From Caldisericia bacterium (GTDB lineage: Bacteria > Caldisericota > Caldisericia > UBA6126), in contig DAOSES010000005.1 of the NCBI GenBank assembly GCA_035363255.1, positions 5,436-69,435 of the forward strand: DNA of 64,000 nucleotides, in the 5' to 3' direction. Under the pieces are notes generated by a model, which saw only the letters and a list, made by a program, of their open reading frames with translations, was not told where the DNA came from and ran no database searches. Position 1 is the first letter of the stretch. Each line of letters opens with the position of its first letter. Positions 5,159 through 25,200 of the stretch are shown in pieces. Position numbers and translations under genes: made by a program.

Positions 5159-5166
5159 GGTGTAGC

Positions 5167-8100
5167 ATGAAAAAAGTTCTATCTTTACTGTTACTTGTCA
5201 TCTTGCTGATGGGCACATCACCTGTGAATGCCCAGGAACCTGCAAGAATAGTCATTTCTCCGAATGTTCAATGCCTGCAATTGGGTGAACAAGTCACTCT
5301 TACGGCCCAAGCTTATGATGCAAGTGGAGCATTGATACCAGGGGCTGCTTTTGATTGGTCCTTGCAAGGGCCAGGGAGCTTGTCTTCCAGCAGTGGATCG
5401 ACCGTCACCTATCAAGCCAATCGTGATGGGCAGGTAGTGATAACGGTTCGCTCTGGAACGGTAAGCGCGAGTATTCGTTTTTCTGTGGGCAGTGGAAAAG
5501 TCAGCAATGTCCAGGCTCGAGTCGATCCAGATACTGCTGGTGCAGTGGCTGAATACTACATTTTTTTTGAAACAGATGATTGTGGCATCCTGGAAGCAGG
5601 CGATCAAATATATGTGGCTTTTCCTATAGGCACGATTCTTCCCAATTATTATCATTGTAGTACGGTGACCGTCAACGGAATGATAGCCTCCTATGAGGTA
5701 CGAGAATCCAGCGATCGATCTAAAAGTCCTATTCTTATCATCACCATCCCCAACAATTTTCGTCCTTCTTCATCCATTTATATACGAGTATGCAAAGTAA
5801 TTAATCCCCGTGGTGGCAGTTGTTACGTCCTGGCGGTTGCTACCAGCAGACAAACTCAGTGGGTGCTTTCTTCACCCTATTCCATCCGTGGATCTATCAT
5901 TAGTCCTCCCATGGTGGAAGTTAAGCCTGATATTGCGGGAGAAACAGCTGTTTATAAGATCACTTTTAAAACTTCTAATTCAGGTCGTTTGTCAGGGTGT
6001 TATGGTAGTTTCATTATGGTGGAATTTCCAGTCGGAACCAGGATGCCTCGTGAGATATTACCCGAACACATTATGGTCAACCGGGTGCCAAGCTGTCCTC
6101 ATATCAAACCGGAAATCAATGGACGTACTGTTAAAATTTTCCCTCAGATGGTAGTTATTGAAGACTCCGATGTCGAGATTGAATTTACCCTCGAAGCAGG
6201 CTTTGGCAATCCCGAAAAACCCGACGATTATCAGTTGGCGGTATGGACTTCTTCTGACACCATACGAGTTCTTTCACGTTCGTATAAAATCAGGGCATCT
6301 ACTATCGAAGATTTGCAAGTCGAGGTGGATAAGCCATTTATTCAAACTCCTTCAGCCTATACTATTCGCTTCAAGACAGGACTGGTAGGGCGATTGGGTA
6401 TCGGTGCTTTGATAACCATCTATTTCCCCTCTTCCATGACGATGCCAAGTCCAGTCAGACCAGGAAGTATCAAGATCAATGGGGTTCCCACCATCAAAAA
6501 TCCCATCTTTGACGGAAAAACCATATTGCGTATTCCCACTCCCGTTGAGATCGAAGCACGTAGCCAAGTCGAAATTGTCATCAGTGAAGAGTTTGGTCTC
6601 ATTAATCCTCCCGATCCAAGACGTTATTTTCTTGAAGTGCAGACAGCAAAAGAAGGTACATTGGTTAAATCAAATGAGTTTGTGATTGGTCCAAGCGTGG
6701 TTGGAGAGGTTTCAGTTCGTCTGAGCATGCCCTATATTGGAGTTGCAAGCGCTGTTGAGTTGTCTTTTGTTTCTGGTGGTGGCGGTAAAATGACTGCTGA
6801 GAAAGATAGAATTTTCATTGTTTTCCCCAAAGGCACTCACATCCCCAATGCAATCCAAAAAAGCGCTATCACCATCCAGGGGCAAAGCATACCCGTTACC
6901 CCATTTATAAAGAAAGACATCGGAGAAATCATGCTCCATGTCCCTGTTGACATTCCAGCCCAGAGCAAGGTAGTCGTGCGATTTGAAGAAAGCGCAGGTC
7001 TGCTCAATCCGTCTCAGACAGGTTTTTATCGATATCAAGTGGCTACATCCAGGGAAGTCTCCTACATACAATCCCCTCCCATTGAAATCACAGAATCCAC
7101 TGTGCGTTTTGTCCAAGTAAAAGTACTTCACAATACGATCAAAGAGCTCAGTCGTATGAGTATCTCTTTCCAACTGGGGGATGCTGGAAAGCTCGAGAAG
7201 AACGATCGTATTCGTTGTTTTTTTGATGCAGGATTTGTTTTTCCAGACAGCATAGACAAAGGAATCATATTGAATAGCGTACCATTAGATCCTTCTGATA
7301 TCATAGTGGATGCCTCAAGAGATATGATTGAAATACGCTTGAACGAGGAATACCCTGAAGGTAGTTTGATGAGTCTTGAAATCCAGGAAAGCGCCGGAAT
7401 CAGAAATCCAGCCCAGGCAGGAATGCATCAGATAGGCATTTCAAGTAGCAGTGAAACCCGAACCATAGCTTCTCCCGAATTTCGCATCATTCCCTTACCC
7501 AGCACAGAATATGCTCTGGATCCAATGATCCCTGATGGTCAAAATGAATGGTACATTTCTGAACCAAGCTTGACCCTGAATATAGACACAGAAGACAAAG
7601 AACGAGCTGAAAGCTATGTTTCCATCAATGGATCCGAATGGAGCAAATACACTGAGCCTATATCTTTTGCTTCTGGAGAATACTTGATTGAGTTCTACAG
7701 TCAACATAGCGATTCTGCAAAAGAACAAAAACAGAGCATTTCGATCAAAGTGGACACCAAAGCTCCCATTATTCAGCTTAGCGAAAAAACCGTCTATACC
7801 AATAAAGGCAATTACAAGCTTTCTCTTGCCATTATCGAGTCCTGGTTTGATTATGCAATGGTAGGAGAGCAGAGAATCGATTCCCTGATTGAAGGTAGAT
7901 TGATTGCAAATGTATCTCTTCAGGAAGGTGAAAACAAGCTCATCATACTAGTGTATGATCTTGCGGGACATCGGAGTGAAGAGCATCTAACCCTGGTATT
8001 GGACACCCAGGCTCCCAAGCTTGAAATCTCACAACCTCTACCCTGGTCGAAATCGATTCGAAGCAGAATCTGGATAAGTGGAACCACGGATCCCGATGCT

Positions 8101-8643
8101 GAAATTTTCTGTAATGACAAACCCTTGCGACACATCGAGGGTAGCTTCGAAGGTTTTATTCCTCTTCTTCCTGGCCTGAACGCTTTAAATTTTCTTGCCG
8201 TGGATCGTGCAGGAAATGAAAAAAAATATACTCTTCCCGTCCAGTATGCTGAAAAATTCCAAGCTGAGATTTTTATCGACAAAACCAAAGCTCAAAGCAG
8301 TTTTGGGGAAATTCATTTTGATGCTCCGCCCTTTATTGAAAAGTCATATACCATGGTTCCTCTGAGAGTTTTTGCTGAACTTTTAGGCTATCAGATTGAA
8401 TTTGAGCCAGTTTTTCAAATCATCACCATGAGTGAGTTTGGAGGAAAAACTATTCGTGCCCAGGTAGGCAACACCATTTTTACAGTGAACGATCAAAAGA
8501 AAACCTTAGCTGTTGCTCCTATGATTCGCAATGGCAGAACCTTTGTACCTTTGCGTTTCTTTGCGGAAGAATTTGGTTTTGAAGTATCTTATCGAAAGGA
8601 AAGTCACAGCGTATTATTAACATACCATGAACCTACTGAGTAG
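5167..8643 (+). CDS. large secreted surface protein (~1158 aa): Big_2 domain, ~5 copies of the ~135-aa KNP module, conserved C-terminal cassette with 2x Cu_amine_oxidN1
   Basis: Probable start at ATG 5167 (MKKVLSLLLLVILLMGTSPVNA signal peptide); the ORF track begins at 5155. Big_2-like segment IVISPNVQCLQLGEQVTLTAQAYDASG.... Module ends VINPRGGSCYVL, FGNPEKPDDYQL, LINPPDPRRYFL, LLNPSQTGFYRY, IRNPAQAGMHQI. C-terminus has WYISEP...KVDTKAPII, an Ig-like domain and two FVPLRFFAEEFG-type repeats. Confidence 0.8.
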   Translation: MKKVLSLLLLVILLMGTSPVNAQEPARIVISPNVQCLQLGEQVTLTAQAYDASGALIPGAAFDWSLQGPGSLSSSSGSTVTYQANRDGQVVITVRSGTVSASIRFSVGSGKVSNVQARVDPDTAGAVAEYYIFFETDDCGILEAGDQIYVAFPIGTILPNYYHCSTVTVNGMIASYEVRESSDRSKSPILIITIPNNFRPSSSIYIRVCKVINPRGGSCYVLAVATSRQTQWVLSSPYSIRGSIISPPMVEVKPDIAGETAVYKITFKTSNSGRLSGCYGSFIMVEFPVGTRMPREILPEHIMVNRVPSCPHIKPEINGRTVKIFPQMVVIEDSDVEIEFTLEAGFGNPEKPDDYQLAVWTSSDTIRVLSRSYKIRASTIEDLQVEVDKPFIQTPSAYTIRFKTGLVGRLGIGALITIYFPSSMTMPSPVRPGSIKINGVPTIKNPIFDGKTILRIPTPVEIEARSQVEIVISEEFGLINPPDPRRYFLEVQTAKEGTLVKSNEFVIGPSVVGEVSVRLSMPYIGVASAVELSFVSGGGGKMTAEKDRIFIVFPKGTHIPNAIQKSAITIQGQSIPVTPFIKKDIGEIMLHVPVDIPAQSKVVVRFEESAGLLNPSQTGFYRYQVATSREVSYIQSPPIEITESTVRFVQVKVLHNTIKELSRMSISFQLGDAGKLEKNDRIRCFFDAGFVFPDSIDKGIILNSVPLDPSDIIVDASRDMIEIRLNEEYPEGSLMSLEIQESAGIRNPAQAGMHQIGISSSSETRTIASPEFRIIPLPSTEYALDPMIPDGQNEWYISEPSLTLNIDTEDKERAESYVSINGSEWSKYTEPISFASGEYLIEFYSQHSDSAKEQKQSISIKVDTKAPIIQLSEKTVYTNKGNYKLSLAIIESWFDYAMVGEQRIDSLIEGRLIANVSLQEGENKLIILVYDLAGHRSEEHLTLVLDTQAPKLEISQPLPWSKSIRSRIWISGTTDPDAEIFCNDKPLRHIEGSFEGFIPLLPGLNALNFLAVDRAGNEKKYTLPVQYAEKFQAEIFIDKTKAQSSFGEIHFDAPPFIEKSYTMVPLRVFAELLGYQIEFEPVFQIITMSEFGGKTIRAQVGNTIFTVNDQKKTLAVAPMIRNGRTFVPLRFFAEEFGFEVSYRKESHSVLLTYHEPTE

Positions 8644-10027
8644 TTTTTTATTTTATTCTGCCCTATTTTTCTATACTCTCACTGCTTTTTTCTTTTTGCG
8701 ATTGTTTGTCTGGAAAAGATATAGTGAGTATTTTTATTGGAAAAAGCGACCCTTCATCTCCTCTCTTGATTTAAGCTATCTTGCTCGTCATCAAAAAAGT
8801 GATTTACCATTTCTGAGCATTCTTGTTCCTGCTCGAGATGAAGCCCTGGTGATTGAAAAAACCATCTCCAACCTTTGCCAGATGGAGTATTCTCCCAGCC
8901 ATTATGAGATTATAATCATCACCGACGAAAGAGAAGAAATCGCATTTCTTAAAAAAGCCAGGTCCAACCTTCCAACAACTGCAAGCATAGCCCGTGATTG
9001 GCAAGTAAAATGCTTTCAGCAAGGCCCACGCATCAAAGTGCTTACTGTCCCCCTGGGTTTTGATGGTCAATATCAGGGAAAGGTTTCTTCCGTCCAGTTT
9101 CCATCTACCAAAGGCAGAGCCCTTAACTATGCCCTGTCTTATCTTGATGGTCGATCCACGGTTCTTGGTTTTTATGATGCAGAAAGTCGCCCGGATCATA
9201 AAACTTTTCTCTACGTCGCTCATGAATACCTTATTAAAAAAGAAGGAATGGCGATATTGCAAGGACCACTATTTCAAGTGAGAAATTTCTATCGCCTGGG
9301 TCCAGTGTCTCGCCTGGGGGGTTTGTTTAAAGCCATATCTCATGATTGGTACCTCCCTGTGATTTTTAAAACCCTTCCCTTTGTGGGGGGTACTCATTTT
9401 TATGCAATACGGAGCCTGGTGGAACAGGTCAGGGGTTTTAATCTCTCTGCTTTGACCGAAGATTTAGATTTTGGTATTCGAGCTTATCAACACAAACAGC
9501 AAAAAGTTGAATTTCTGCCTTTGGTCTCCACCGAACAAACTCCCCCACGTTTCAGGCAATATTTTCAACAACGTTTGCGATGGGCCTCTGGACATCTACA
9601 AGTGATGTCAGCTCTCAGCAAGCGCGATCCCATCTTTTGGCATCTTTTTTTCAAAGGACCTTTTGAATGGCTCTTGTATCAGGGATCAGCATTTACAGTG
9701 ATAGGGCTCAATCTCTTACTGCTTTCCACCCGCTTTGGATGGGTCCCAGCCACTATGATCCATTTTCCTCTTAGTATGGAGTATGTTTTTGGTTTTCTTA
9801 ATATTCCTTATTTTCTTTTTTCTTATTACTGCTTTCGTCGCTATGCTTTCACCTACGACCGTGATAAGCATCTCACGCATATGTTTCCAGGTTTTGATTT
9901 AATCAGAATCATAAGCTCTTCTCTCTTGGTTTTTCTTTTGCCATTACCTTACACCTATGCCATAGCTCTGCATTTTTTTCGAAAAAAACCCTTAATATGG
10001 GTTAAAACCGCAAGAACAGCTGAATAA
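8627..10027 (+). CDS. integral-membrane family-2 glycosyltransferase (processive GT2, cellulose-synthase/PgaC-like)
   Basis: N-terminal TM segment. GT-A fold motifs: ILVPARDE, the DxD-like IIIITDE, and QQRLRWASGH (the Q(Q/R)xRW motif). Several C-terminal TM helices. 17-nt overlap with the upstream surface-protein gene. Confidence 0.75.
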   Translation: MNLLSSFLFYSALFFYTLTAFFFLRLFVWKRYSEYFYWKKRPFISSLDLSYLARHQKSDLPFLSILVPARDEALVIEKTISNLCQMEYSPSHYEIIIITDEREEIAFLKKARSNLPTTASIARDWQVKCFQQGPRIKVLTVPLGFDGQYQGKVSSVQFPSTKGRALNYALSYLDGRSTVLGFYDAESRPDHKTFLYVAHEYLIKKEGMAILQGPLFQVRNFYRLGPVSRLGGLFKAISHDWYLPVIFKTLPFVGGTHFYAIRSLVEQVRGFNLSALTEDLDFGIRAYQHKQQKVEFLPLVSTEQTPPRFRQYFQQRLRWASGHLQVMSALSKRDPIFWHLFFKGPFEWLLYQGSAFTVIGLNLLLLSTRFGWVPATMIHFPLSMEYVFGFLNIPYFLFSYYCFRRYAFTYDRDKHLTHMFPGFDLIRIISSSLLVFLLPLPYTYAIALHFFRKKPLIWVKTARTAE

Positions 10028-11338: not shown

Positions 11339-11459
11339 ATGAACCAAGCGATGAACCTGCTAAAAAAAGGATGGTATTTAGTTTATGATGAATAAAAAAA
11401 ATAACGACTATATTACAAAGTTTATGGATAATCGATTTTTAATGCAAAGGAGAAATATA

Positions 11460-14400
11460 ATGAGAAAAGGAATTAGTCTAAGTATTGTGCTATTTCTCGT
11501 TCTTTCTCAGTTCGTTTTTGTGCAACCTGCAGCTGCTCTTTCCGCAGCAAATGTTACCGTTACTCCCCCCATCGCTGGCAAAGAGGCTTCCTATTCCATC
11601 GCTTTCACTACCGGAGCCCTGCCAGCCCATGAAATACCTGCAAGCACCGGCTATATCCGCATCACCTTCCCCTCAGGCACCACCATCCCCACCACCATCA
11701 CCGCGGCTGATGTTACGGTTAATGCAGTGGCCACCCCTTCCAATCCCACGGTCTCAGGTAGTTCGGTGCGTGTCATGGTTCCATCTTCCATCACACCCAG
11801 CTCTCCTGTTACTCTTCTTTTTGCGCTCAATGCCGGCATTAAAAATCCCACTACCACCACAGGAAATCTCAAGCTCAAAGTTGAGACAGGATACCTGGTA
11901 GGCACTACTCAAACAGTCATCGAATCAGCAGTTGATTCCAACCCCTATTTCATCGGTTCTCCCGCCACGGTTACTCCTGCTGTCAACACCGATCTCAGCA
12001 CTTTTGTGGAATACAAAGTGGTTTGGAAGCTTGGCAATGAAGGCGCTCTTAGCAAAAACTCCGGCACCATCACCCTCACCTTTCCTCCTGCTTTTGATAT
12101 GCCTGATGGCGCTTATCTAAACGCAATTCCTGGTACCTATATCATGGTCAACAATACCCGTCTAAATGCTTCTGCCACTTGCACCAAAGCTCTTCCTGCG
12201 GATCCTCTCGTTATTACTTTTACCACTCCTGTCGATTTAGCCAACAACGCAACCGTTACAGTTCTTTTGACCAATCAAGTGGGTATGAAAAATCCCATCG
12301 CTGGAGACTACACTATCCAGGTCAAAACATCCAAAGAAAACACTGACATCCAATCAGAGTCTTTTGCGATCGTCAATGCCGTCAAATTTAACATCGACCT
12401 TGATCCAGTCAAACCAGGCATACAAGGCGTGGTGGTTGATCCCCCAGTAGTCAGTGCGGAAGCCGAATATGTCATCGCCTTTCAAAACAATATTCCCCTT
12501 TCTGTGAATGTTGGCACCATCACTATCGCCTTCCCTACCAGCACCATGCTTCCCACTTCCATCCCCTCTTCTGCAGTTATTTTTGATGTGGGTGGCGTTG
12601 TCACCGATTTGGTCTTTACTCCTGCTCGTTCGGGCAACAATGTGACTATTACTGTTCCCGTAAATATTCCAGCCAATTCTGATATCACCATAACTTTCCA
12701 GCGGTCCTTAAAAGTCAAAAATCCCACTACTGCCAATATATATCACCTTCAGGTCATGACCTCTTCCCAACCCCATTATCGGGTTTCCACACCTTATGCT
12801 ATCGGCACAGCAGTCACTGGTATCAAGGTGACCCCTTCTCCCGATACTTCCAACACAGAAAACGTTCAATACCTGGTTGAATTCAAACTCGGTGCCAATG
12901 GTGCCCTTACCGCCAACACCGACAAAATATATATCATGCTCAAGGTGGCAGCTCCTGTGATGCCTTCCACCCTCACCCCAGCCTCGGTTTTGGTAGGCAA
13001 TGATCGTACTCTGGTAGCCACCGAAGTTGAAAATACCACCCTGCCAGCTGACCCCCTGCTTGCTGGATATCAGCGCTTTATTGTCACTCCTCCCAAGGAT
13101 ATTGCTGCCAATCAAACAGTTAAAGTTACTTTTCTTTCTTCGGCAGGCCTCAAAAACCCCACTCCAGAAAGTCTCAGAGGCTATGTACGCACCAACAAGG
13201 AACCCATTCTTAGCGACTCTCCCTTTTATTTGATAGTGGATGCCGCAGAAGTTGGAAATATTGTCGTAGATCCTCCTTCCTCCGGAGTGGAAGCAGGCTA
13301 TACCATACCAGTCACCATAGGTCAGGCTTTGGCAAAAGATACAGACACCATCACCATTGCTTTCCCGATGGCCACCACTATTCCAACCTCTATTGCTCCT
13401 GGCAGTATCACGGTCAATGGTCTTGGACTTAATTTTGCTCCAACAGTTTCAGGTAGAAATATCACTTTCCGAGTTCCTGCCAATTATCCAGCCACCACTC
13501 TATTAACCATAGAGTTTACCAAAGCAGTCAAAATCAAAAACCCCACCACTCCAGGTCTTTATACCCTCCAGGTTATGACTTCCATGCAACCCAACTACCG
13601 AGTTTCTCCCCCCTACGGCATTGGCTCTTCGGTAACCAACGTAAAAGTGACTCCAAGCCCAGATACTGCCAGCACCACCAATGCTGTTTATGTGGTAGAA
13701 TTCAAACTAGGTGCCAACGGTGCCCTCAGTGGAAACACCGATAAAATATATATCATGCTCAAACTGGATGCTCCAGTGATGCCATCCACTCTCTCTCCCG
13801 CTTCAGTGCTGGTAGGAAATGATCGTACGGTCATCTCAACTGAAATCGAAAATACTACTCTTCCTGCAGATACTTTACCTGCAGGTTATATTCGCCTTGT
13901 GGTCACTCCTCCCAAAGATATCGCCGCCAATCAAAACGTTAAAGTGACCTTTCTGGCTTCAGCAGGGCTTCAAAACCCTCTTCCAGGAAGCTTGAGAGCT
14001 TTTGTGCGCACCAACAAAGAACCCATTGTGATGGATTCAGCTTATTATTTAATCGTTGATGCTGTCCTGGTTGGAAATGTTGTGGTAGATCCTCCCTCCA
14101 CCAGTTCTGAGGCTTCCTATACTTTCCCCATCACCATTGGCAGAGCTATGGTCAAAGATATCGACACTGTCACGGTAGCTTTTCCTCAAAGCAACACCAT
14201 TCCCACCAACATTACCCCCGGAAGCATCACCGTCAATGGCTTACCTCTCAATTTTGCCCCCACGATTTCTTCCCGCACCGTAACTTTCCGTGTTCCAGAC
14301 AACTATATTGCCGGAACTGTACTTAATATCGTATTTACCAAATCTGCAAAGATTAAAAACCCCACCACTGCAGGGCTCTATGAATTGCAGGTCATGACTT

Positions 14401-17400
14401 CCATGCAACCCAACTACCGAGTTTCTCCCCCTTATGGCATTGGAACATCGGTATCAGGCTTGAAAATTACCCCCAGCCCCCAGACAAAACTTTCAACTGA
14501 TGTTCAGTATGTGGTTGAATTTCGTTTGGGTGCTAATGGAGCTTTGCGAGGAAACACCGACAAAATTGTTCTTTTACTGCCTCTCACTTCCCCCCTCATG
14601 CCCTCCACCATTCCTGGCTCATCGGTGATGGTAGGCAATGATCTTTGCACCATAGCTATAGCAGTGGAAAATACGACAGCTCCTACCGACGCACTTCCTG
14701 GAGTTGAATATGTAAGAATTATCGTCACTCCTCCCAAAGATATAGCTTCAGGTCAAAATGTAAAAATCACCTTCCTGCCCTCAGCAAGCCTTCAAAACCC
14801 CAATGCAGGAAATTGGCGTGCCTATGCGCGTACTTCTCAAGAGCCTATCGTCGTCGAATCTGATTACTACCTAATAGCTGATGCCATCGACATCACAGCA
14901 GTAAATGTAAACCCTCCCTCAGTTTCGGTCGAAGCTCAATATACGATTACATTCGATATAGGCACTAATTTAAACCAAAACACTGGAACCATCACTGCTT
15001 CCTTCCCAACAGGCACCACTATTCCCACCACTATTCCCACGAGTGCTGTCCAAATCACCCAAAACGCCATCACCCAAAACCTTACCGTCAATCCCCAGGT
15101 TTCTGGCACTCGTGTAATTATCACCGTTCCAATGAATTTAATAGCCAACCCTTTATGGCCTATTACCCTGGTTTTCCAAAAAAGTGCAGGCATCAAAAAC
15201 CCCACCAAGCCAGGTCTTTATACCCTTCAAATGATGACCTCTGCTCAGCCCTATTTCCGAGAATCCCCCATGTACACCATCGGTTCTTCGGTTTCTGCAG
15301 TCAAAATTACTCCCATGCCCAATACCATGGCAGAGCAAAACGTTGAATATCATGTGGAGTTCAAAACTGGAGCAGTAAATCTCAGAGCTAATCTTGACCA
15401 GATTTTCGTCTGGCTCCCCATTTCTGGCGTTGGTCCTTCTCCTTTGTCTCCCGCCACAATCCTGGTCAATGGTGTTTACACCAGCTTAAGCACTACCCAT
15501 GTGCTCGACACCATCAATGCCGTAAACTACCAAAAATTTATGATCACCGTACCCGCGGAAGTCAAACAAAACTCTACCGCAAAAGTAGTTTTCCTCAGCT
15601 CCTGTGCTTTAGCAAATCCTCTTGCAGAAGGCATCTATAAAGGGTATGTCGCCACTTCTCTCGAAGATATCCCCATCGAGTCGGAGCTCTACGGAATTGT
15701 AGATTCTGTTACTTTCCCTGGCTTTATCCCTCCTGGTGACTTAAGATCAGTGCTTCCAAAACCTAATGCTATTAAGCTTCCTGCCCAATATTTACTATCT
15801 TTCCGTACCACCATAGGCAAGCCAACCCTGCAAGCCAACATTGGCACGGTATCAGTAGTTTTCCCTGCAGGCACCAAAGTCCCAGGCACCATATCCGCTG
15901 GCTCGATCTATGTTTCCAAGACTCCTACCCCTATATGGGCACCCGGGACCCCCGACAACGTAGTTTGCAATCCTCCCTCCGGGACGGTAGTCACCCAACC
16001 CGTGATAGTATCCGGGCAAGAGGTTACCTTCCGTACGCCTATGGATATTTTTGGCGGTGAAACAGTCTATGTGCTCTTCTGTTTGTCTGCCAACATCGAA
16101 AATCCACCCGATCCTGGCTTATACCATTTACAGATCAAAACAAGTTCTCAACCCAATTATGGTATATCCAGATCTTATCTCATTCGTTCCACCATCGAAA
16201 AACCAGTCGTTACTCCTATTCCTGCCGTCACTGCTGAACTGGCGGAATATACGATTCGCTTCAAACTCGGTGCCCAAGGAGCATTGACTCCCAATGTTGA
16301 CAAGATATTCCTTGCTTTCAAGAAGGATCCCCTTAATGTGAACGATTATACTACCCCCCCTGCAGGCAACCTTGCTCCCTCCACTATTCGTGTCAACGGC
16401 GTCTTTACCACTGCCTTCAATATTGTCCAAACTGGGCCTGTGCTTCCCCCCAATGTGGACAATGCCCCTGGCTGGACAGAATATCGCTGGATAGAAATTC
16501 AAAGCCCCATGGCTTTAGATGCAAGCCAGGAAGTTACCATTCAGATTTTAGAATCTGCAGGACTAATCAACCCCATCAATGCAGGCAATCATATGCTGGT
16601 CGCTTGGACCAATAAAGAGCCAGTGGCGATAGGGTCTTTTGAATACATCCTGGGTGATGCAATCAAAAATGTTACGGTTCCGGTTTCTCATCCCAATCCT
16701 CGTACTGCAGGCAGCATTGCTGAATATCAAATTGAATTCAATCTTGGAGCATCTCCGGTAAGTGCTCTTAATGCCAATGTAAGCACAGTTACTGTTACCT
16801 TCCCTGAAGGTACTATTCTTCCAAGCTCCATCAATCCTGCAGATATTAAAATTCGACAGGGAGTAAATCCTTTTGCTTCATCACTTCCCCCAGTAGTCAT
16901 AAGTGACCGTTCCATCCAGTTTGTTGTTCCAAATTCTATAGCTGCTGGTTCTTCCGTAACTGTACTCTTCGCCAAAGGAGCAAAAATCAGTAACCCAACA
17001 ACACCAGGTTCTTATCGGCTTAAGGTTCGCACTTCTTCTCAGCCGATTGATGCTCATTCCAATTACTATACTATTCTCTCCACCAGCGGAATTCCCAAAG
17101 TGAGTGCTGATCCTGCGGTCATCAACTACGAAAATACAGCTTATACCGTCGAGTTTACCAGTGGGCAAAATGGCTCTCTGAGTGCAGGCATCGACAAGAT
17201 TAAAATCTATTTTGATCCTACATTAGCTGGATTTAATGACAATCCAGACCCATATCCACAATTGAATACAGCCATACCTCCTAATTCTATTCATGTTAAT
17301 GGGGTTCCCATATCAAGCATTCCCGAAAAGATTAACTCTCTTACTCGTTTACAATACTTACAATTTTTTACTCCTGTTGATATTGCCGCTGGTGAATTAG

Positions 17401-20400
17401 TAATAGTCGAAATCTTGGGTCTTACTGGTATTAAAAATCCTGGAGTTGTTGGGCCTTATCGATTAGTAATTGAAACCACCTCTGAACCCACCCCGGTCGA
17501 GTCTATGGAATTTAGTCTCTTTTCATCCATCACTGCTCCTCTCGTGACTCTTTCCGTTTCTGATGCTACTCCTCCCAAACCCAAGGGCACCAGTCCTCAT
17601 GCCAAGGTTCAGGTTAAAATTGATTTCAATACTGGCCCCGCAGGCAATCTGGTAAAAGATATTGGCACTCTAAGCATTGAGTTTCCTTTTGATACTTATC
17701 TGCCACTTGCTTTTGCTCCTGGCAGCATTCGAGTCAATGGCATCACTCTCGTGGAAGCCCCTGTGGTAGATCTTGAACATCGCAAAATAACCATGAAAAC
17801 TCCTGTACATATTGCTTCCAATGCCGCAGTGGAAATTATTTTCACTGAATTGGCCGGAGTAAGAAATCCTACTCAACCTGGCAACTATACCCTCAAGGTA
17901 GCTAGCTCTTCAGAGCCCTTGTTTATTCGCTCCACTCCTTACGTGATTGAGGGGCTTTCTGCCGCAAGCGTGGAAGTTGATCCCTGTTTGTTTGATAGCG
18001 CTATGGCGAAATATCATATTAGCTTCCAAAACACACTTCCCATTCTCTCTGGTTCCACCATCATTATTGAGTTTCCCCATGGCACCAAATTGCCTTCAGT
18101 GATCCAGGGTAGTTATGTTCTGGTCAATGGAAGACCTGCCAATGTGGGCACTTTCCCTCAGGTAGCAGTCAATCTGCAAACAGTAGAAATTAAAGTACCC
18201 GAAAATATTCCTGGCTTATCCGTGATTGACATCGTCTTCCTTCCCGAAGCCCGTATCACCAATCCTCCCAGCGGAAACTATATGCTCAAGATCCGTACCA
18301 ATACTGCTGATCCTGATTTTCGCTTTATCGAATCTCAGCCTTACTATATCTGCCAGCTCATTTCGTTGGCATCAGTAGAGATTACTCCCCAAAATCCCAC
18401 CCTGGAAAAGAATTCCACTCGAGCTTTTACTGCTATTGTAAAAGACGATCAGGGCAATGAAGTCAAGTCGGGTTTACAATTCAATTGGACCTTGGAAGGC
18501 ACTGTAGGCAATATCTCGCCCAATAATGCCCGTACCGTTACCTTTACTGCCGGATCCCAAGCTGGAAAAGGCAAGCTGTCTGTTCAAGTCAGAGCTTATG
18601 GCACCCCCGATCCCGTCACAGCATCTACCGATATTACTATCGCTGCCAGTCTGGCATCCATTACCATATCTCCAAGCTCTGCTACCGTCCAAACAGGTAA
18701 AACTCAAACTTTTACCGCAACTGCAAAAGATGAATTAGGCGCAACCCTAAATATAGACGTTGATTGGACCCTCATTGGAGCATTAGGCTCCTTGAGTCCT
18801 GCCAAAGGCAAGACCACTACCTTCACTGCCAGCAGCACCGAAGGAACCGGACAAATCAAAGCTTCTGCCACTTTCGGAGGAGTTAGCAAAGAAGCTACTT
18901 CTTCTATCACTGTCAGCTCCGAAGCTGCTCCACCTCCCCCCCCTCCTCCTCCCCCACCCCCTGCTGATGTTCAACCTTTCACTGTGGTGGTAGCTCCATC
19001 CAATGTTCGCAGTAGTCAGGCAGAGATTAACTTCTCCTTTACAGTATCTGCTTTGGCAAACGTGGACAATGGACTCTTTGACATGACTATACCCGAAGCT
19101 TTCCCAGCGCCAATCCTGACCTCTTCTTCAGCAGGTTTTGTTGAAGTCAAGGGAGGAGCGGGAGTTGAATTAGCCACCCCTATTTCCATCAATCAACGAA
19201 CAATAACCATCACAGTCACCAAAATGACTCGGGGACAAATCTTTACTTTGTCGTATAGTCGCGTGACTGCTCCTGAACGTCCTGGTGAATATGTTTTTAT
19301 TTGTAATGGAAAAGCTAAAGCCGATGCAAGCATGAAAGAAGTTACCGAACAACCCAAAGTCACCGTCGTATCAGCCTCTGATGGTGCTGGTAGAGCTACC
19401 ATTCAGCCTAACGAAGCTTCAGCTGGAGCTATTGGTCAGCAGTTTGCCATTACTTTTATCGCTGATGCTATCATGGATGGAGGAGCCATTTCAGTGACTA
19501 TTCCTGATGGTTGGTCACGTCCCTCTCTTAACGCCACCTCCCCTGGATTTATAAAAATGGGTGAGATGACAGCAGAAGTTGGCTCTCTCGAAGTTTCTGG
19601 AAACGTCATCACCTTACCCATCGAAAAACTCGATATCAATCAAAAATTTACCATCCTTTATACCAATGTTGAAGTTCCCAAAAATCCCAATACCTACTCA
19701 TTCCTTGTGAAAAGTAAAGGCTTGGGTGGAACTCTCAAACCTATCGTTCTCAATCCCTCGGTCAAAGTGGACAACACCCGCATTGCAGACGGAAAAGTTG
19801 AAGTAAAGCCCAATATGACCAACACCCCCGCAGAATACTCCATCACCTTCCGTTCCTCTCTCAGTGGCTTCCTGCCCAAAGATATCGGCAAAATTACCCT
19901 GGTCTTCCCCGCCGAAACTACCTTACCCTCTTCCATTCCCTCCGATCAGGTCACAGTGAATGGAAAAGTGGTAACACAAGCCATTGAAGTCGATCCTCTT
20001 CGTAGCACTCTTAGCTTGAGCGTTCCTGAGGATTTACCCTCCAATTCGCTCATCATTGTAAAGTTTTCAGAAAAAGCAAATATCATCAATCCCAAGACTC
20101 CCAAAGAAGATTACCGCATTATGATTTCCACTACCTCAGATTCCATCCCAACAGCCAGTGCCAATTTCCGTATTGTGGTGTCTTTGTTGCGTAATGTTAA
20201 AGTTAGCGTTTCGCCCATTGTTCCTGGAGCAAGTGCTGCCTACAACATCAAGCTGATGGTGGGTGGAGCTGGAGCCTTAAACATCAATCAAGATACTATT
20301 ACTTTGGTCTTCCCCTCTGATACTGTTTTGCCGGCTACTATCGCTGCCAATAGCATCACTGTAAACGGAACACCGCTTCAAGTGCGTCCTCAGATCGATA

Positions 20401-22190
20401 TTGCTCAACGCAAACTCACCCTATCTCTCCCTGTAAGAATTGAAAACGATGCGGAAGTGACCATCGACATTCTATCTTCAGCCAACCTGAAAAATCCTAC
20501 CCGGGATGGAATGTACAAGCTCAAAGTTTCCAGCTCAAAGGAAAGCAATCCTGTCGAGTCGGAAGCTTATCAGATTGGAACTTCACTTCTTGGAGATGTG
20601 AAGGTTTCCCTTTCTTCCTCAGTAGTAGAAACACCCAATGTAACCTATACGGTTAGTTTCCGTACAGGAGCATATGGATCCCTTAATGTAGGCGATACCA
20701 TCACAGTTAATTTTGATAGAAGATACCGACATACCTCAATTCAGGCATATCAAGTAAGTGTAAATGGCGTTGTATTGAGTATCACCCCAGAAATCCAAGA
20801 AGGGCATATCATTGTTCTCAAAACTCCCATTGCGGTATCAGCTCAAAGCAATGTTACTCTCGCCATCAGTGGCATCACCAACCCCTCCGAAGCAGGCGAA
20901 TATACCCTTTCTCTCGCTACTCAGGCAGAACCTATGCCAGTTGTTTCAACTCCTTATCGAGTGGGTATGGTGCTGGAAACCAAAATTACTATCAATCCTG
21001 AAGAAGCCAATGGGCTTGCTGGATGGTACACCATTGCTCCCAACATCCTCTTTACCAATGAAGTCAGCTCTGCTCAGATCTTTTATTCCTGGGATCAGGG
21101 TAATTTCCAACTCTATACAGGTGGATCGATTCGAGCTCCTGAAGGGATCCATCTTTTAACCTGGTACTCCACTGCAGAAAACTTCGAAGATGAAGCCAAG
21201 CAGAGTATGCAATTCAAGGTGGATACCAAAGCCCCCATGATCAGGATCACCAAACCCGTCGAAGGATTTGTTGCCACTACCCCCACCCTCGTGGTTGAGG
21301 GCGAAGTGGACGAAGAGCATTCCTTTACAGTGAACGTAAATGAACGACCTGCTACCGTTACCGACAAGCGATTCAGCATCACTGTCACTCTCAATCCTGG
21401 TGAAAACTGGCTGGATATTGTGGCTACTGATGAAGCTGGTAATCGAAGCATTAGTCCTCGAATGCGAGTCAACTATGCGGTTCCAGCAGAAATCAAATTC
21501 AATATTACCTCTCCCAAAGCCTTGTCTTTTGTTTACCCAGAGCTCAAACCAGCTCAACTGGCAGGCTCTTTCCAACTCACTGCAGCAATTAGGGTAACGG
21601 GCACTATTCAACCTGCAAACGCCAATACGCTCAATGTAATCATCCTTGGAAAAATGGAAAAAGCATTGACCATCCCTATTGCAGCTGATGGTTCTTTTGA
21701 TGGTGTTGTTAATCTACCAGTTACTGCTGGGCTCAATGGCATCACTTTCAGTGTCACCGACACAGCAACGGGTAAGGATTATTCCACTTCAGTGGCAGTG
21801 GTTTCCAAAGTTACTGTTACGCTTCAAATCGGAAATGCTCTTGCCTTCATGAACGATAAAGAATATCGTCTGGATGCTCCTCCCTATATCAAGAATTCTC
21901 GCACCATGCTTCCCATGCGTTTTATTGGAGAATCCTTTGGGGCAACGATAGGATGGAATGCAGAACAGCGCAAGGTTTCCTACACACTGGACAACATTGT
22001 CATTGAACTCGTCATTGGCAATGTTAACGCTTCAGTAAAGCGTGGCGAAAAAACCGAACAGCATAAGCTGGATGTAGCTCCTGAAATAGTCAATGGCAGA
22101 ACATTTGTCCCAGTTCGCTTTGTTTCTGAACAACTTGGCGCAGAGATAAAATGGGACGCAAACACTAAGAAAGTAACGATAGTAAAATAA
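11460..22190 (+). CDS. giant secreted surface protein (~3576 aa): ~20 tandem ~135-aa KNP modules, 2 Big_2 domains, poly-Pro linker, C-terminal cassette with 2x Cu_amine_oxidN1
   Basis: Best start ATG 11460 (MRKGISLSIVLFLVLSQFVFVQPAAA signal peptide), preceded by RBS AAGGAG 7 nt upstream. The ORF track starts 75 nt earlier at 11385. Continuous ORF with no stops. Module ends IKNPTTTTG, VKNPTTAN, IKNPTTPG and similar. Big_2 segments near aa 2330-2500. 13x Pro. WYTIAP...KVDTKAPMIRI. Two C-terminal TMLPMRFIGESFG- and TFVPVRFVSEQLG-type repeats. Confidence 0.85.
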   Translation: MRKGISLSIVLFLVLSQFVFVQPAAALSAANVTVTPPIAGKEASYSIAFTTGALPAHEIPASTGYIRITFPSGTTIPTTITAADVTVNAVATPSNPTVSGSSVRVMVPSSITPSSPVTLLFALNAGIKNPTTTTGNLKLKVETGYLVGTTQTVIESAVDSNPYFIGSPATVTPAVNTDLSTFVEYKVVWKLGNEGALSKNSGTITLTFPPAFDMPDGAYLNAIPGTYIMVNNTRLNASATCTKALPADPLVITFTTPVDLANNATVTVLLTNQVGMKNPIAGDYTIQVKTSKENTDIQSESFAIVNAVKFNIDLDPVKPGIQGVVVDPPVVSAEAEYVIAFQNNIPLSVNVGTITIAFPTSTMLPTSIPSSAVIFDVGGVVTDLVFTPARSGNNVTITVPVNIPANSDITITFQRSLKVKNPTTANIYHLQVMTSSQPHYRVSTPYAIGTAVTGIKVTPSPDTSNTENVQYLVEFKLGANGALTANTDKIYIMLKVAAPVMPSTLTPASVLVGNDRTLVATEVENTTLPADPLLAGYQRFIVTPPKDIAANQTVKVTFLSSAGLKNPTPESLRGYVRTNKEPILSDSPFYLIVDAAEVGNIVVDPPSSGVEAGYTIPVTIGQALAKDTDTITIAFPMATTIPTSIAPGSITVNGLGLNFAPTVSGRNITFRVPANYPATTLLTIEFTKAVKIKNPTTPGLYTLQVMTSMQPNYRVSPPYGIGSSVTNVKVTPSPDTASTTNAVYVVEFKLGANGALSGNTDKIYIMLKLDAPVMPSTLSPASVLVGNDRTVISTEIENTTLPADTLPAGYIRLVVTPPKDIAANQNVKVTFLASAGLQNPLPGSLRAFVRTNKEPIVMDSAYYLIVDAVLVGNVVVDPPSTSSEASYTFPITIGRAMVKDIDTVTVAFPQSNTIPTNITPGSITVNGLPLNFAPTISSRTVTFRVPDNYIAGTVLNIVFTKSAKIKNPTTAGLYELQVMTSMQPNYRVSPPYGIGTSVSGLKITPSPQTKLSTDVQYVVEFRLGANGALRGNTDKIVLLLPLTSPLMPSTIPGSSVMVGNDLCTIAIAVENTTAPTDALPGVEYVRIIVTPPKDIASGQNVKITFLPSASLQNPNAGNWRAYARTSQEPIVVESDYYLIADAIDITAVNVNPPSVSVEAQYTITFDIGTNLNQNTGTITASFPTGTTIPTTIPTSAVQITQNAITQNLTVNPQVSGTRVIITVPMNLIANPLWPITLVFQKSAGIKNPTKPGLYTLQMMTSAQPYFRESPMYTIGSSVSAVKITPMPNTMAEQNVEYHVEFKTGAVNLRANLDQIFVWLPISGVGPSPLSPATILVNGVYTSLSTTHVLDTINAVNYQKFMITVPAEVKQNSTAKVVFLSSCALANPLAEGIYKGYVATSLEDIPIESELYGIVDSVTFPGFIPPGDLRSVLPKPNAIKLPAQYLLSFRTTIGKPTLQANIGTVSVVFPAGTKVPGTISAGSIYVSKTPTPIWAPGTPDNVVCNPPSGTVVTQPVIVSGQEVTFRTPMDIFGGETVYVLFCLSANIENPPDPGLYHLQIKTSSQPNYGISRSYLIRSTIEKPVVTPIPAVTAELAEYTIRFKLGAQGALTPNVDKIFLAFKKDPLNVNDYTTPPAGNLAPSTIRVNGVFTTAFNIVQTGPVLPPNVDNAPGWTEYRWIEIQSPMALDASQEVTIQILESAGLINPINAGNHMLVAWTNKEPVAIGSFEYILGDAIKNVTVPVSHPNPRTAGSIAEYQIEFNLGASPVSALNANVSTVTVTFPEGTILPSSINPADIKIRQGVNPFASSLPPVVISDRSIQFVVPNSIAAGSSVTVLFAKGAKISNPTTPGSYRLKVRTSSQPIDAHSNYYTILSTSGIPKVSADPAVINYENTAYTVEFTSGQNGSLSAGIDKIKIYFDPTLAGFNDNPDPYPQLNTAIPPNSIHVNGVPISSIPEKINSLTRLQYLQFFTPVDIAAGELVIVEILGLTGIKNPGVVGPYRLVIETTSEPTPVESMEFSLFSSITAPLVTLSVSDATPPKPKGTSPHAKVQVKIDFNTGPAGNLVKDIGTLSIEFPFDTYLPLAFAPGSIRVNGITLVEAPVVDLEHRKITMKTPVHIASNAAVEIIFTELAGVRNPTQPGNYTLKVASSSEPLFIRSTPYVIEGLSAASVEVDPCLFDSAMAKYHISFQNTLPILSGSTIIIEFPHGTKLPSVIQGSYVLVNGRPANVGTFPQVAVNLQTVEIKVPENIPGLSVIDIVFLPEARITNPPSGNYMLKIRTNTADPDFRFIESQPYYICQLISLASVEITPQNPTLEKNSTRAFTAIVKDDQGNEVKSGLQFNWTLEGTVGNISPNNARTVTFTAGSQAGKGKLSVQVRAYGTPDPVTASTDITIAASLASITISPSSATVQTGKTQTFTATAKDELGATLNIDVDWTLIGALGSLSPAKGKTTTFTASSTEGTGQIKASATFGGVSKEATSSITVSSEAAPPPPPPPPPPPADVQPFTVVVAPSNVRSSQAEINFSFTVSALANVDNGLFDMTIPEAFPAPILTSSSAGFVEVKGGAGVELATPISINQRTITITVTKMTRGQIFTLSYSRVTAPERPGEYVFICNGKAKADASMKEVTEQPKVTVVSASDGAGRATIQPNEASAGAIGQQFAITFIADAIMDGGAISVTIPDGWSRPSLNATSPGFIKMGEMTAEVGSLEVSGNVITLPIEKLDINQKFTILYTNVEVPKNPNTYSFLVKSKGLGGTLKPIVLNPSVKVDNTRIADGKVEVKPNMTNTPAEYSITFRSSLSGFLPKDIGKITLVFPAETTLPSSIPSDQVTVNGKVVTQAIEVDPLRSTLSLSVPEDLPSNSLIIVKFSEKANIINPKTPKEDYRIMISTTSDSIPTASANFRIVVSLLRNVKVSVSPIVPGASAAYNIKLMVGGAGALNINQDTITLVFPSDTVLPATIAANSITVNGTPLQVRPQIDIAQRKLTLSLPVRIENDAEVTIDILSSANLKNPTRDGMYKLKVSSSKESNPVESEAYQIGTSLLGDVKVSLSSSVVETPNVTYTVSFRTGAYGSLNVGDTITVNFDRRYRHTSIQAYQVSVNGVVLSITPEIQEGHIIVLKTPIAVSAQSNVTLAISGITNPSEAGEYTLSLATQAEPMPVVSTPYRVGMVLETKITINPEEANGLAGWYTIAPNILFTNEVSSAQIFYSWDQGNFQLYTGGSIRAPEGIHLLTWYSTAENFEDEAKQSMQFKVDTKAPMIRITKPVEGFVATTPTLVVEGEVDEEHSFTVNVNERPATVTDKRFSITVTLNPGENWLDIVATDEAGNRSISPRMRVNYAVPAEIKFNITSPKALSFVYPELKPAQLAGSFQLTAAIRVTGTIQPANANTLNVIILGKMEKALTIPIAADGSFDGVVNLPVTAGLNGITFSVTDTATGKDYSTSVAVVSKVTVTLQIGNALAFMNDKEYRLDAPPYIKNSRTMLPMRFIGESFGATIGWNAEQRKVSYTLDNIVIELVIGNVNASVKRGEKTEQHKLDVAPEIVNGRTFVPVRFVSEQLGAEIKWDANTKKVTIVK
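12420..14880 (+). repeat. intragenic tandem triplication of a ~0.82-kb (≈273-codon, two-module) unit inside the 3576-aa gene
   Basis: Near-identical DNA strings (e.g. atgac[ct]tc[ct]...caactaccgagtttctccccc) recur at about 12,756, 13,575 and 14,393. The proteins show ~70-80% identical 273-aa blocks (VKVTPSPDT...KIYIMLK...LKNPTP...LIVDA). Confidence 0.8.
18925..18963 (+). repeat. C-rich tract encoding a 13-residue poly-proline linker (contains a C8 homopolymer at 18934..18941)
   Basis: Sequence gct cca cct ccc ccc cct cct cct ccc cca ccc cct, translated AAPPPPPPPPPPPPPADV. Lies between the Big_2 pair and the C-terminal module block. Confidence 0.9.
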
Positions 22191-22243: not shown

Positions 22244-25200
22244 ATGAAGTTAAAAAAATGGTTTAGTTTGTTCTTAAGCTTGGTGTTGCTCTATTCCTGG
22301 ATACCATTGGGCAGGGCAGCCATCAGCAATCTGATCAATACCCCCACTCCCAACACAGCGGGTTCGAACGCTTCTCAACGAATCCGATTCATTAATGCAG
22401 TCACGATACCCGTGGGTGGTCGCGTTGAAGTCACCTTTCCTCAACAGTTTGATCTGAGTAGTGGAGGAGACTGGATTCCAGCGGATATCGTTTTAAACTT
22501 TCAAGGAGGGCCAGCAGTTACGGTCAGTGATGTGATACGTAATGGTCAAAAAATCTCCTTTGGCATTGGTGGAGCTGCTTCAGGAGTTGGATTTCAGGAG
22601 TTCACCCTCAATGCGCTGAGGATTATTAATCCCCCTACCCCCGGAACTTACACCGTATCTCTCACCACTCTTGGCATCACTGGAACCCAACTGGAAGGTA
22701 CAGCCACCTCTGCTTCATTTGAAATTATACAGGATATGAGTGCCGCTTCGGTCACGGTGGAACCCGATATTGCAGGGGCTAATGCCAAGATGACCATCCA
22801 ATTTCGTCTTGGAACTGGAACTTCTCGTAGTCTATATACGGGAGATCGTATCCGTGTTGCTTTTGATGCCAATGTGGTGGATTTGACCAAAGTTACCACC
22901 GTCCCCGGCACCATCCAACGATCGTTCCTAAAAGTAAATCAATCAGCAGTTACTACTGACCCCACCATCACTCCTGGTGAGCCTGGGGTGAGTCGGGGTA
23001 TTGTGGAAGTGATCATTCCCCAAAATATCACCTCCAGCGCTACCCAGGGTGCTGCTGTAACGATTACTTTCGAAACAGGCGCAGGCATTCTCAATCCAAA
23101 CGATGCTCCCTGGACTCGACGAGTGGAAGTTACCACCCTGCGAAGTAATGGCATCACCATTATCGAAGGTCCTGTGGCCTCAAATTTCTATGCCATTCGC
23201 ACCACCGTTGCTGCTCCCAAGGTGTTTGTCAGACCTGAAATAGTTGGTATGAACGCTGAATATCATTTATCCATGAAGCTTGGAGCTAACAGCAGTTTAC
23301 TCAAAAACTCTGGAAGGATTGATGTAATTTTCCCAGAAGGCACGCAAATGCCAGCTTCTATCCCAGCTTCTGCCATTCGCATCAACACTGCAGTAGCAGA
23401 ACCTGCCTTTCCCTGCGATGGACCCGATTCCCCTCCTTTTGAGCCTTTGGTTTCGGGACATAAGGTCTCTTTTGTGATGCCAGTGGATGCAGTAGCAAAC
23501 AATTTTATTTGTATTGTTTTCAAGGCTTCCAGCGGAATAAAAAATCCCACAAGTCCTAGAGTATATCACCTACAGATTTCTACTTCCTCGGATCCCTCCA
23601 TAATATCTTCTCAAAGTTATTCCATTCGTCTTTCAGGAAGAGCCCAAGTTACTCCAGACCCTGCGAAATCCTCCGAAAGAGCTCAATATACTATCCAATT
23701 CCAGACTGGAGTCGATGGAGCCCTATATCCCTTTGGCACTGCTGGAACCAACAAAAATATTATGATTACATATCCTGCTGGTTTTATACTTCCTGCAGGA
23801 ATTGCAGCTGGCTTGATAACAGTCAATGGAGTTGCTACCACTGAAGCTGCAGTTATTGCAGCCCAGGTGATTACTTTTCCAGTTCCCCAGGTGATCGAAA
23901 ATAACTCCTCCGTCACCATAATCATTAAAAAAGATGCTGGAATCATCAATCGAAAGATTGCGGAGTCTCCTGAATATCATAGTCTTGTGATAGAAACTGA
24001 CAAAGAAAAAGGTCCCAACAAGATTATTTCTGACCAATTTATGTTGTATTCACCCATTACCGAAGTCTATGTGGTTCCTGGTGATCTTGGGGTTGGAGTG
24101 GTTAGTCGATATGAAGTCAGTTTTAAAATTGGTGATGTGGTAGAGGGTTTGAAACCCAATGACCGTATCAGCATTGAATTTCCCGCTGGCACTACCTTAC
24201 CCTCTTTTATCTCCACAGGAAATGTTCGACTTCAGAACGATGCAGGAGTTTCTCCTTCTTCTTTAATTATTGCTGGAAACACTATTCACTTGACTCTTCC
24301 AGCTACCTTTGTGCCTGTTCCTCCTCCTCCTGGCATCAACAATGTAAAAGTAATCTTTTTCCAAAGCTCGGGCATACGAAATCCCGAAAATCCAGGTTCT
24401 TATCGAGCCACGGTATATACTTCACGCGAAAATACTCCAGTTTTATCTGAGTTTTATACGATTGGTACTGTTTCGGGTCAAGTTCAAGTAACTGTTGACC
24501 CCAACAAAACGGGCTATTGCACTACCAGTGCTGAGGGTGCTCATTACACCGTCCAATTTACCACGGGTCAAACAGGTGGCGTTTCTTCCGGACAGCGTAT
24601 TATGCTGGTATTTTCTCCTGAATATGGTCCCATTTTTACCGTCAACCATCCCCTGAATCTTATTCCAGCAGGCACCATTCTTGTTAATGGCATACCTACC
24701 CAAATCAACACCACCATCGACAATGCTCCCACCCCTCAACATCCTCTTGGGTCCAAAATGCTCTCCATTATTTCTCCCGTCAGCATCAGTTCTCAAAGTG
24801 TAGTAAAAATTGATTTGCTTTCTTCTGCAAACATTGATAATCCTCCAGTGTCTATCACCCCCCAACCTTTCTTCTTACGTGTTTTTACAGATAGTGAACC
24901 CAGTGTTATCTCTGGATTGTACTACCTGATCTCAACCATTCGAGGCATTGGGGCTGGCTGTCACGATCCTCTCGGAGTGGAGTTGACCAATCAACTCACC
25001 CGCATGGGAACTGATATCAAGATATCTTTGCGTACAGGTATAGTAGGTGCTCTCAATTCTGGCTCAGACAGGCTCCGAGTGAAATTTCCAGCCGAAACTC
25101 ATATTCCCAGCTTTATTTCTGGCCAATACATTCGAATCAACACTGTGGACAATTTTGCAACCAGTGTAAGCGTTTTGAATCCCAGTATTTCTGACAAAAC

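Follow-up and report, generated by a model that had tools for sequence, protein, structure and literature searches.

A giant putative envelope-protein gene of a Caldisericota bacterium with a probably old tandem expansion of a two-module unit

The giant gene and its repeated units

We analysed a stretch of 64,000 nucleotides (nt), hereafter the window, from a Caldisericia bacterium (GenBank assembly GCA_035363255.1, contig DAOSES010000005.1, positions 5,436 to 69,435 of the forward strand). It carries a giant gene whose product contains a long series of units, each made up of two modules, A and B. Three of these units, named U1, U2 and U3, resemble each other more than they resemble the others, and we regard the segment that they occupy (12.44-14.92 kb) as probably an old tandem expansion of the A-B unit, now fixed in copy number, in the stalk of an envelope protein. 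The features of the gene are given in Table 1.

Table 1. Coordinates of the giant gene, its repeated units and associated features in the window
Feature	Position	Strand	Basis
Giant surface-protein gene, 10.8-kb open reading frame (ORF), 3601 amino acids (aa) from ATG 11385	11385..22190	+	ORF list and translation
Probable Sec signal peptide (MRKGISLSIVLFLVLSQFVFVQPAAALSA)	11460..11546	+	Basic start, hydrophobic core, A-x-A motif
Unit U0 (modules A0-B0), old copy, aa 62-341	11568..12407	+	33-36% aa identity to U1-U3
Unit U1 (modules A1-B1), 277 codons, aa 354-630	12444..13274	+	BLASTP against U2 64%, E=1.6e-111; orthologous clade bootstrap 100%
20-nt exact repeat, U1 copy (U2 copy at 13743-13762)	12924..12943	+	Exact-run search
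Unit U2 (modules A2-B2), 273 codons, aa 631-903, chimeric middle unit	13275..14093	+	Module identities, switch at informative sites
38-nt exact repeat, U2 copy (ATGACTTCCATGCAACCCAACTACCGAGTTTCTCCCCC), putative short gene-conversion patch	13575..13612	+	Longest exact common string
Putative junction of the unequal crossover in U2, where module A meets module B (counterparts: 12804-12843 in U1, 14442-14481 in U3)	13623..13662	+	Breakpoint columns 156-169
Unit U3 (modules A3-B3), 274 codons, aa 904-1177	14094..14915	+	BLASTP against U2 64%, E=1.5e-117; orthologous clade bootstrap 100%
38-nt exact repeat, U3 copy	14394..14431	+	Longest exact common string
Unit U4, older sister of U1-U3, aa 1178-1450	14916..15734	+	41-47% aa identity to U1-U3; bootstrap 73%
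Units U5-U7, old copies, to aa 2335	15810..18389	+	27-37% aa identity to U1-U3; 28-35% among themselves
Glucodextran_B-like domain, aa 3284-3355	21234..21449	+	Pfam PF09136, E=2.1e-11
C-terminal Cu_amine_oxidN1 domain, aa 3489-3599, best of two stretches	21849..22181	+	Pfam PF07833, E=2.4e-48

The exact 3601-aa product is on record in JGI 3300009707 (contig Ga0116195_1000078), and an exact look-up of the 3576-aa product that results from the alternative start, ATG 11460, found no record. The segment directly behind this second start, which from its translation is a probable Sec signal peptide, is conserved in P0010, an orthologue of 57% aa identity. The repeats begin immediately after it, no distinct N-terminal head domain being detected in the translation or by Pfam and BLASTP. 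At the other end, the Cu_amine_oxidN1 domain is a probable envelope anchor. No recognisable adhesive (ligand-binding) domain was found in the Pfam scan of the giant protein, which gave only Glucodextran_B, Cu_amine_oxidN1 and weak matches to Invasin_D3 (under Pfam's cut-off) and DUF2808. An S-layer protein was also considered and set aside, as the Pfam scan of the giant protein and its units gave no SLH or S-layer family. From these sequence features the giant protein is probably a secreted envelope protein of a Caldisericota bacterium, most likely serving as a long stalk or fibre of the cell envelope. A search of the literature on the Caldisericum envelope gave nothing usable.

The A-B unit occurs eight times over aa 62-2335, and U1-U3 are therefore not an isolated triplet. 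The two modules, A with about 122-134 aa and B with about 142-162 aa, can be told apart, A modules scoring a mean of 71 bits against other A modules versus 38 bits against B modules. The direct-repeat families at about 12.5-14.9 kb have start-to-start spacings of 819/819 and 819/822 nt, the best self-offset of the protein is 273 aa, and the 819-nt (273-codon) register spans about 12.44-14.92 kb. The BLASTP E-values of U2 against U1 and U3 in its own protein (Table 1) place the repeat far beyond chance. Tandem Repeats Finder reported no array at 12.4-14.9 kb; its longest period of 500 is below the 819-nt unit, and the copies are only 56-65% identical in DNA. A first, sequence-only reading of this DNA had described a triplication of a unit of about 819 nt, in three blocks of 273 codons, at 12420-14880 in a gene taken as 3576 aa long. 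The units were found within about 35 nt of these limits, but they measure 277, 273 and 274 codons, and U4 is a fourth, more diverged member. Additional copies of the unit lie near the C-terminus of the giant protein and in the neighbouring genes at 5155-8643 and 22244-29845.

U1 and U2 are identical at 64% of aa and 65% of nt positions, as are U2 and U3, and U1 and U3 share 51% and 56%. This compares with 41-47% aa and 50-53% nt identity between U4 and U1-U3, and with 24-37% aa identity (46-48% nt in the three pairs measured) among the remaining pairs, which bears out the earlier statement that the three blocks are more alike than other modules. The 70-80% protein identity given for the whole units was too high; values of 70-85% are reached only in sub-regions, such as module B of U1/U2 (77%) and module A of U2/U3 (71%). 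Likewise, the identical DNA strings do exist but are short. The longest common to two units is the 38-nt repeat of Table 1, followed by two 20-nt runs, one shared by U1 and U2 and one at 13902 that matches at offset 822, and only five in-register exact runs of at least 14 nt occur at offsets 819/822.

We then estimated divergence between units by the method of Nei and Gojobori. Neighbouring units (U1/U2 and U2/U3) gave a proportion of synonymous differences (pS) of 0.61-0.68, a synonymous divergence (dS) of about 1.3-1.7 and a nonsynonymous divergence (dN) of 0.25-0.29; the synonymous sites of U1/U3 were saturated. The units have diverged at a dN/dS of about 0.17. The expansion had been called recent, which is contradicted both by synonymous sites this close to saturation and by a three-unit state that is matched one-to-one in every relative recovered.

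An AlphaFold2 model of U2, built with 13 sequences, had a mean predicted local distance difference test score (pLDDT) of 89.7 and a predicted template modelling score (pTM) of 0.71, and consists of two all-beta domains. Its best Foldseek matches in the PDB were tandem immunoglobulin (Ig)-like stalk domains, among them those of PrgB, the C-terminal domains of the antigen I/II proteins SpaP, AspA and SspB, and D0-D1 of intimin, together with integrin legs and C-terminal barrels of transglutaminase. Each unit is thus predicted to form a pair of beta-sandwich domains of the Ig-like type. The matches to antigen I/II and PrgB also brought isopeptide-bonded domains into consideration, for which nothing is claimed here. 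A profile search of PDB sequences with the unit returned only chance-level matches to LysM kinases (E ~0.7). In the protein database the unit profile matched 1588 representative proteins or clusters at E<=1e-3 and 357 at E<=1e-30. Many of the 150 matches listed are giant; the listed proteins reach about 4,700 aa and have 2-19 matched stretches apiece, and the few source names of the homologues read 'hypothetical protein' and come from metagenome-assembled genomes (MAGs) of Caldisericia and Bacteroidetes. By these profile matches, the two-module unit defines a sizeable uncharacterised family that Pfam covers only marginally. DUF2808 (PF10989), without known function and with nothing relevant in the literature searched, is the sole Pfam family to match the A/B modules at all. 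It scores 30.2 bits over the whole giant protein (cut-off 25.3) with no single stretch passing, and 28.5 bits in the C-terminal segment; taken singly, U1 (16.1 bits) stays under the cut-off, as does U6 (20.0 bits), and U2 and U3 have no match.

At about 18390-19100 (aa ~2336-2560) the stalk is broken by a pair of Ig-like domains that match Invasin_D3 weakly, and 12 consecutive prolines come next. The modules beyond the prolines are of a different kind, until A/B-like ones return near the C-terminus.

The middle unit and its relatives

Relatives of U1-U3 were searched for in a 5.8-billion-protein database and in scans of genomes, which gave only L002, and of metagenomes, which gave only L003. 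Over U1-U3 the NCBI MAG contig L006 (GCA_964576405.1) aligns along 2472 nt without a gap and has 97% nt identity. L001 (JGI 3300076802) stays collinear with the window for 15 kb; nt identity is 82%, and the alignment has 89 gap positions. L002, labelled uncultured Caldisericota, is collinear at 72% nt identity; an independent JGI assembly yielded the contig L003, which matches L002 at 99.85%. The 3580-aa orthologue P0010 is collinear through all eight units. Unit lengths of 277/273/274 codons recur in the window, L001 and L002 to within one codon, and exactly in L001. When a neighbour-joining tree was built from all units of these three lineages, each unit formed its own orthologous clade with bootstrap values of 89-100; U1-U3 grouped together at 75%, with U4 as their sister at 73%.

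At the level of the assemblies compared, the copy number is fixed across every relative found. The array had been said to allow copy-number variation, with a comparison among strains as one check. We observed no variation among the assembled relatives: the same units are present in the 97% strain, in the 82% lineage, in the 72% lineage, which was assembled twice, and in the orthologue of 57% aa identity.

Two observations on the relatives may be added here. The orthologous giant gene of L001 is called as three genes of 276, 698 and 2640 aa, owing to an in-frame TAA at 9998-10000 (equivalent to about 12215 in the window) and a frameshift at 12079-12115, inside module A of U3 (about 14290-14320 in the window); these interruptions mark either a pseudogene or errors of sequencing or assembly. 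In addition, U6 (16704-17558 in the window) holds two hot spots of difference between L001 and the window, at aa ~1818-1850 and ~1947-2010, with 35-57% identity in 40-aa windows and insertions of 10 and 6 aa. The more distant L002 retains 75-85% identity to the window at the second hot spot and only 53-75% at the first. In the U6 tree the window groups with L002 (99%) against L001. For U6 dN is 0.21, but it is 0.04-0.07 elsewhere, dS being similar. Such figures point to one lineage in which recombination replaced the sequence locally or diversifying selection acted.

The two halves of U2 have different closest relatives. In the window, L001 and L002, A2 and A3 share 70-81% of aa (71% in the window) compared with 48% for A1-A2, whereas B1 and B2 share 77-84% (77% in the window) compared with 59-60% for B2-B3 (59% in the window). 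P0010 has the same pattern in weaker form. At sites where U1 and U3 differ, we scored the state of U2 in each module, with one Fisher test per lineage. The counts of U3-like/U1-like sites were 96/41 in module A and 46/98 in module B for the window (p 1.6e-10), 89/42 and 49/102 for L001 (p 3.4e-9), and 104/38 and 31/109 for L002 (p 2.5e-18). The best single breakpoint fell at alignment columns 156-169 in all three. A hybrid whose first module is U3-like and whose second is U1-like is the expected product of one unequal crossover, and this mechanism is therefore supported. What might be called an "out-of-phase B-A duplication" is no different event from an unequal crossover whose junction lies at the A/B boundary, and we keep the latter wording.

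Superimposed on this pattern are signs of exchange between units. A permutation test on variable sites found that paralogues within one genome share identical runs of unusual length, which were lineage-specific. They were located in U2/U3 in the window and L001 (the 38-nt tract), and at other positions, in U1/U2 and U2/U3, in L002. Within the 38-nt tract U2 and U3 agree in each genome, with the codons AAC TAC in the window and L001 and the synonymous AAT TAT in L002. When DNA trees were built for the separate modules, the B1 and B2 copies from L002 came out as a pair (97%) and its A2 copy lay inside the A3 clade (100%); in P0010 U2 clusters with U3 (77%). We attribute this same-genome clustering in P0010 and L002 to probable gene conversion, although separate parallel expansions would look similar. 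Overall, the pattern can be read as short-patch concerted evolution on a fixed array, and the few identical strings between units would exist because short patches have been exchanged by gene conversion.

Weighing the history of the array

The history that we favour would start from an ancestral gene that already held a series of A-B units. Two neighbouring units would then have recombined out of register, by a single homologous crossover at the A/B boundary, to give three units. The one in the middle, U2, would have received A2 as a copy from the downstream unit (like A3) and B2 from the upstream unit (like B1). This crossover would precede the split of at least three lineages (72-82% DNA identity), and probably also that of a fourth (57% protein identity). 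Afterwards the units would have diverged under purifying selection with their number unchanged in any relative found, while patches of about 30-90 nt would have been swapped between neighbouring units by gene conversion, differently in each lineage. The likely effect of the extra unit is a rod-like stalk longer by two domains. The unequal crossing-over proposed by the sequence-only reading is hence retained on the strength of the chimeric U2 and the junction common to three lineages, but as an old step from two units to three and not as a triplication. As in textbook unequal crossing-over, the spacing is in register at 819 nt and the hybrid joins the 5' part of the downstream unit to the 3' part of the upstream one. 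It differs in that the event would be old, the array having since behaved as single-copy sequence; otherwise nothing about it is unusual.

Several points weigh against this history or limit its precision. A1, A4 and the ancestor of A2/A3 are about equidistant, and these distances give no order for the older duplications. With dS near saturation, relative dating from synonymous sites is imprecise, and the paralogue dS of 1.3-1.7 lies nominally below the orthologue dS between the window and L002 (1.5 to saturated). In P0010, and partly in L002, units of the same genome group together rather than with their orthologues. The permutation test for conversion takes no account of uneven conservation along the unit. 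The comparison was made on assemblies, in which near-identical extra copies or rare length variants may be hidden. As to the stalk, the Foldseek E-values reach 1e-5 but the template modelling (TM) scores are only 0.25-0.33, which supports the fold class alone.

A different origin would be a single-step triplication, from one unit to three, after which the outer halves A1 and B3 would have diverged faster because edge domains face different neighbours; no chimeric crossover would then be needed. Such a model fits the coincidence of the apparent junction with a domain boundary, as predicted by rate differences between domains, and the contrast at synonymous sites is weak because of saturation. 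What speaks for the crossover instead is symmetry: A1 is about equally far from A2 and A3, and B3 from B1 and B2, as a two-step model predicts. Moreover, A1 is no nearer to A2/A3 than to A4, and the synonymous contrast points in the same direction, with a pS of 0.64 versus 0.72-0.78 in module A and of 0.63 versus 0.68-0.71 in module B. We therefore consider the single-step origin unlikely.

Parallel expansions from two units to three, arising independently in for instance the window/L001, L002 and P0010, would be favoured by the fact that each unequal crossover in an existing array proceeds in steps of 819 nt. The within-genome clustering reported above for L002 and P0010 agrees with them, as does a pS between the L002 paralogues B1 and B2 (0.52) below that between orthologues of the window and L002 (0.64-0.77). 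They would have to account, however, for the same inferred junction in all three lineages compared at the DNA level, for the orthologous clades of the whole-unit trees, and for unit lengths equal within one codon in the window, L001 and L002. The within-genome similarity is also patchy, over tens of nt, and not uniform as it would be after a fresh duplication. On these grounds parallel expansions seem improbable, and a single shared crossover followed by conversion is preferred.

The reading with which the study of this array began, in which unequal crossover tripled the unit recently and still lengthens and shortens the array, would make the product a fibre or S-layer protein of variable length, comparable to the Periscope Proteins. 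In these (SasG/Aap G5-E, Rib/alpha C, Sgo_0707 SHIRT; Whelan et al. 2021) the repeats have high DNA identity and their number changes even between similar strains (PMC8201768). Our protein, too, is a long putative surface protein predicted to consist of tandem folded domains, which would form a rod, with a C-terminal domain of an anchoring type; the unit consists of two alternating domain types, as does G5-E of SasG, and in both cases the reach of the protein could be governed by how many repeats it has. The exact 819-nt register, the closer resemblance among the three units and the 38-nt identical tract, which could aid homologous pairing, would all suit a variable array, and the 2-19 matched stretches per protein across the wider family indicate that unit number does change over long times. 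Nevertheless, dS is 1.3-1.7, the units are only 56-65% identical in DNA with no identical run longer than 38 nt, and they form orthologous clades. Their number and lengths are the same in five lineages including the 97% strain, and the number stays constant from that strain to the orthologue of 57% aa identity, which contradicts variation between lineages. Neither high repeat identity nor a repeat number varying between close relatives, the two defining features of Periscope Proteins, was found in the assemblies, nor did Pfam reveal a distinct N-terminal ligand-binding domain. A recent, length-variable array is thus very improbable. A repeat that keeps its register within a gene is no proof that the surface protein has expanded recently and varies in length; synonymous divergence together with relatives tells old fixed domain arrays from true Periscope-type proteins.

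The array had also been suspected of being prone to assembly collapse, a concern of which only a weaker form, fragmentation, holds for one type of assembly. Logan contigs are assemblies of single SRA runs, and three of them from different sequencing runs (L007, L008 and L009), one recorded in six samples, all stop at position 13604 of the window, 30 nt into the 38-nt repeat. Logan assemblies use k=31, and provided that this value applies we infer that these ends are a break in the de Bruijn graph. For giant repeat genes of this family, systematic fragmentation is to be expected as the usual outcome in such assemblies. On the other hand, two independent assemblies of the species agree and span the array uncollapsed, the window corresponding to the JGI contig Ga0116195_1000078 and being identical to L004, and the NCBI MAG contig L006 giving the same structure. 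U2 cannot be a mis-join of reads from U1 and U3, because it differs from both neighbours at about 35% of its bases. Hence, although the Logan breaks mark the region as hard for de Bruijn assembly at small k, and although a protein from another MAG (P0003, described below) carries a suspicious near-identical internal duplication, there is next to no chance that faulty assembly made the three units from an array that is really shorter or longer, given this difference and a structure shared by the JGI contig, L006 and three other lineages.

Comparable proteins and gene neighbourhood

Fibrillar adhesins have a stalk-plus-anchor architecture (PMC8286594), and the giant protein resembles SpaP/SspB/AspA, PrgB and intimin/invasin in several respects. 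A stalk of Ig-like or beta-sandwich domains is present according to AlphaFold2 and Foldseek, along with a probable signal peptide, a long series of repeats, a weak Invasin_D3 match and a C-terminal domain of an anchor type. The differences are a negligible sequence similarity (7-13% identity at the TM-scores given above), an anchor that would be Cu_amine_oxidN1, no adhesive head domain, LPXTG motif or outer-membrane beta-barrel being seen, and a host that is probably an uncultured Caldisericota bacterium and not a pathogen. The locus would work like these proteins and is probably one more member of the wide class of fibrillar surface proteins with many Ig domains.

One could go further and propose that unit number is held by selection, with conversion keeping A2/A3 and B1/B2 alike. 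The eight-unit stalk would then act as a fixed-length spacer, or 'ruler', of an unusual Caldisericota envelope or sheath, and the concerted evolution of its central domains would reflect a binding partner in common or a homotypic contact. A constant number of units, conversion patches that differ by lineage and a cluster of four similarly anchored paralogues are compatible with this idea and do not demonstrate it, and we regard it as speculative and rather doubtful. Beyond annotation the expansion has little significance, being an ordinary domain duplication. It does offer a clean worked example of a hybrid unit made by unequal crossover and then altered by patchy gene conversion, and the uncharacterised family to which it belongs could merit study for its place in the envelopes of Caldisericota and of further lineages not yet cultured.

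A feature of the kind that the sequence-only reading envisaged was seen in a different protein. P0003, a partial protein of a Caldisericia MAG (PHQ76_06705), contains a segment of about 92 aa (IVFLSSCGFLNPSSEGNFFGYVYTSLETIK...KPALQANIGTIS) twice in almost identical form, the result either of a genuine recent duplication or of faulty assembly.

The giant gene lies in a cluster that includes an extracytoplasmic function (ECF) sigma factor (640-1206), a 773-aa protein without a Pfam match (1203-3524) and a family 2 glycosyltransferase (GT2; 8627-10027); an AAA_14/DUF4143 protein is also encoded nearby. Three further neighbours end in the same C-terminal domain, Cu_amine_oxidN1, and two of them match Glucodextran_B clearly. 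A/B modules are present in two of these three paralogues, at 27-33% identity. By its gene content, the cluster formed by 640-10027, the giant gene and 22244-29845 looks like a co-regulated envelope-protein locus.

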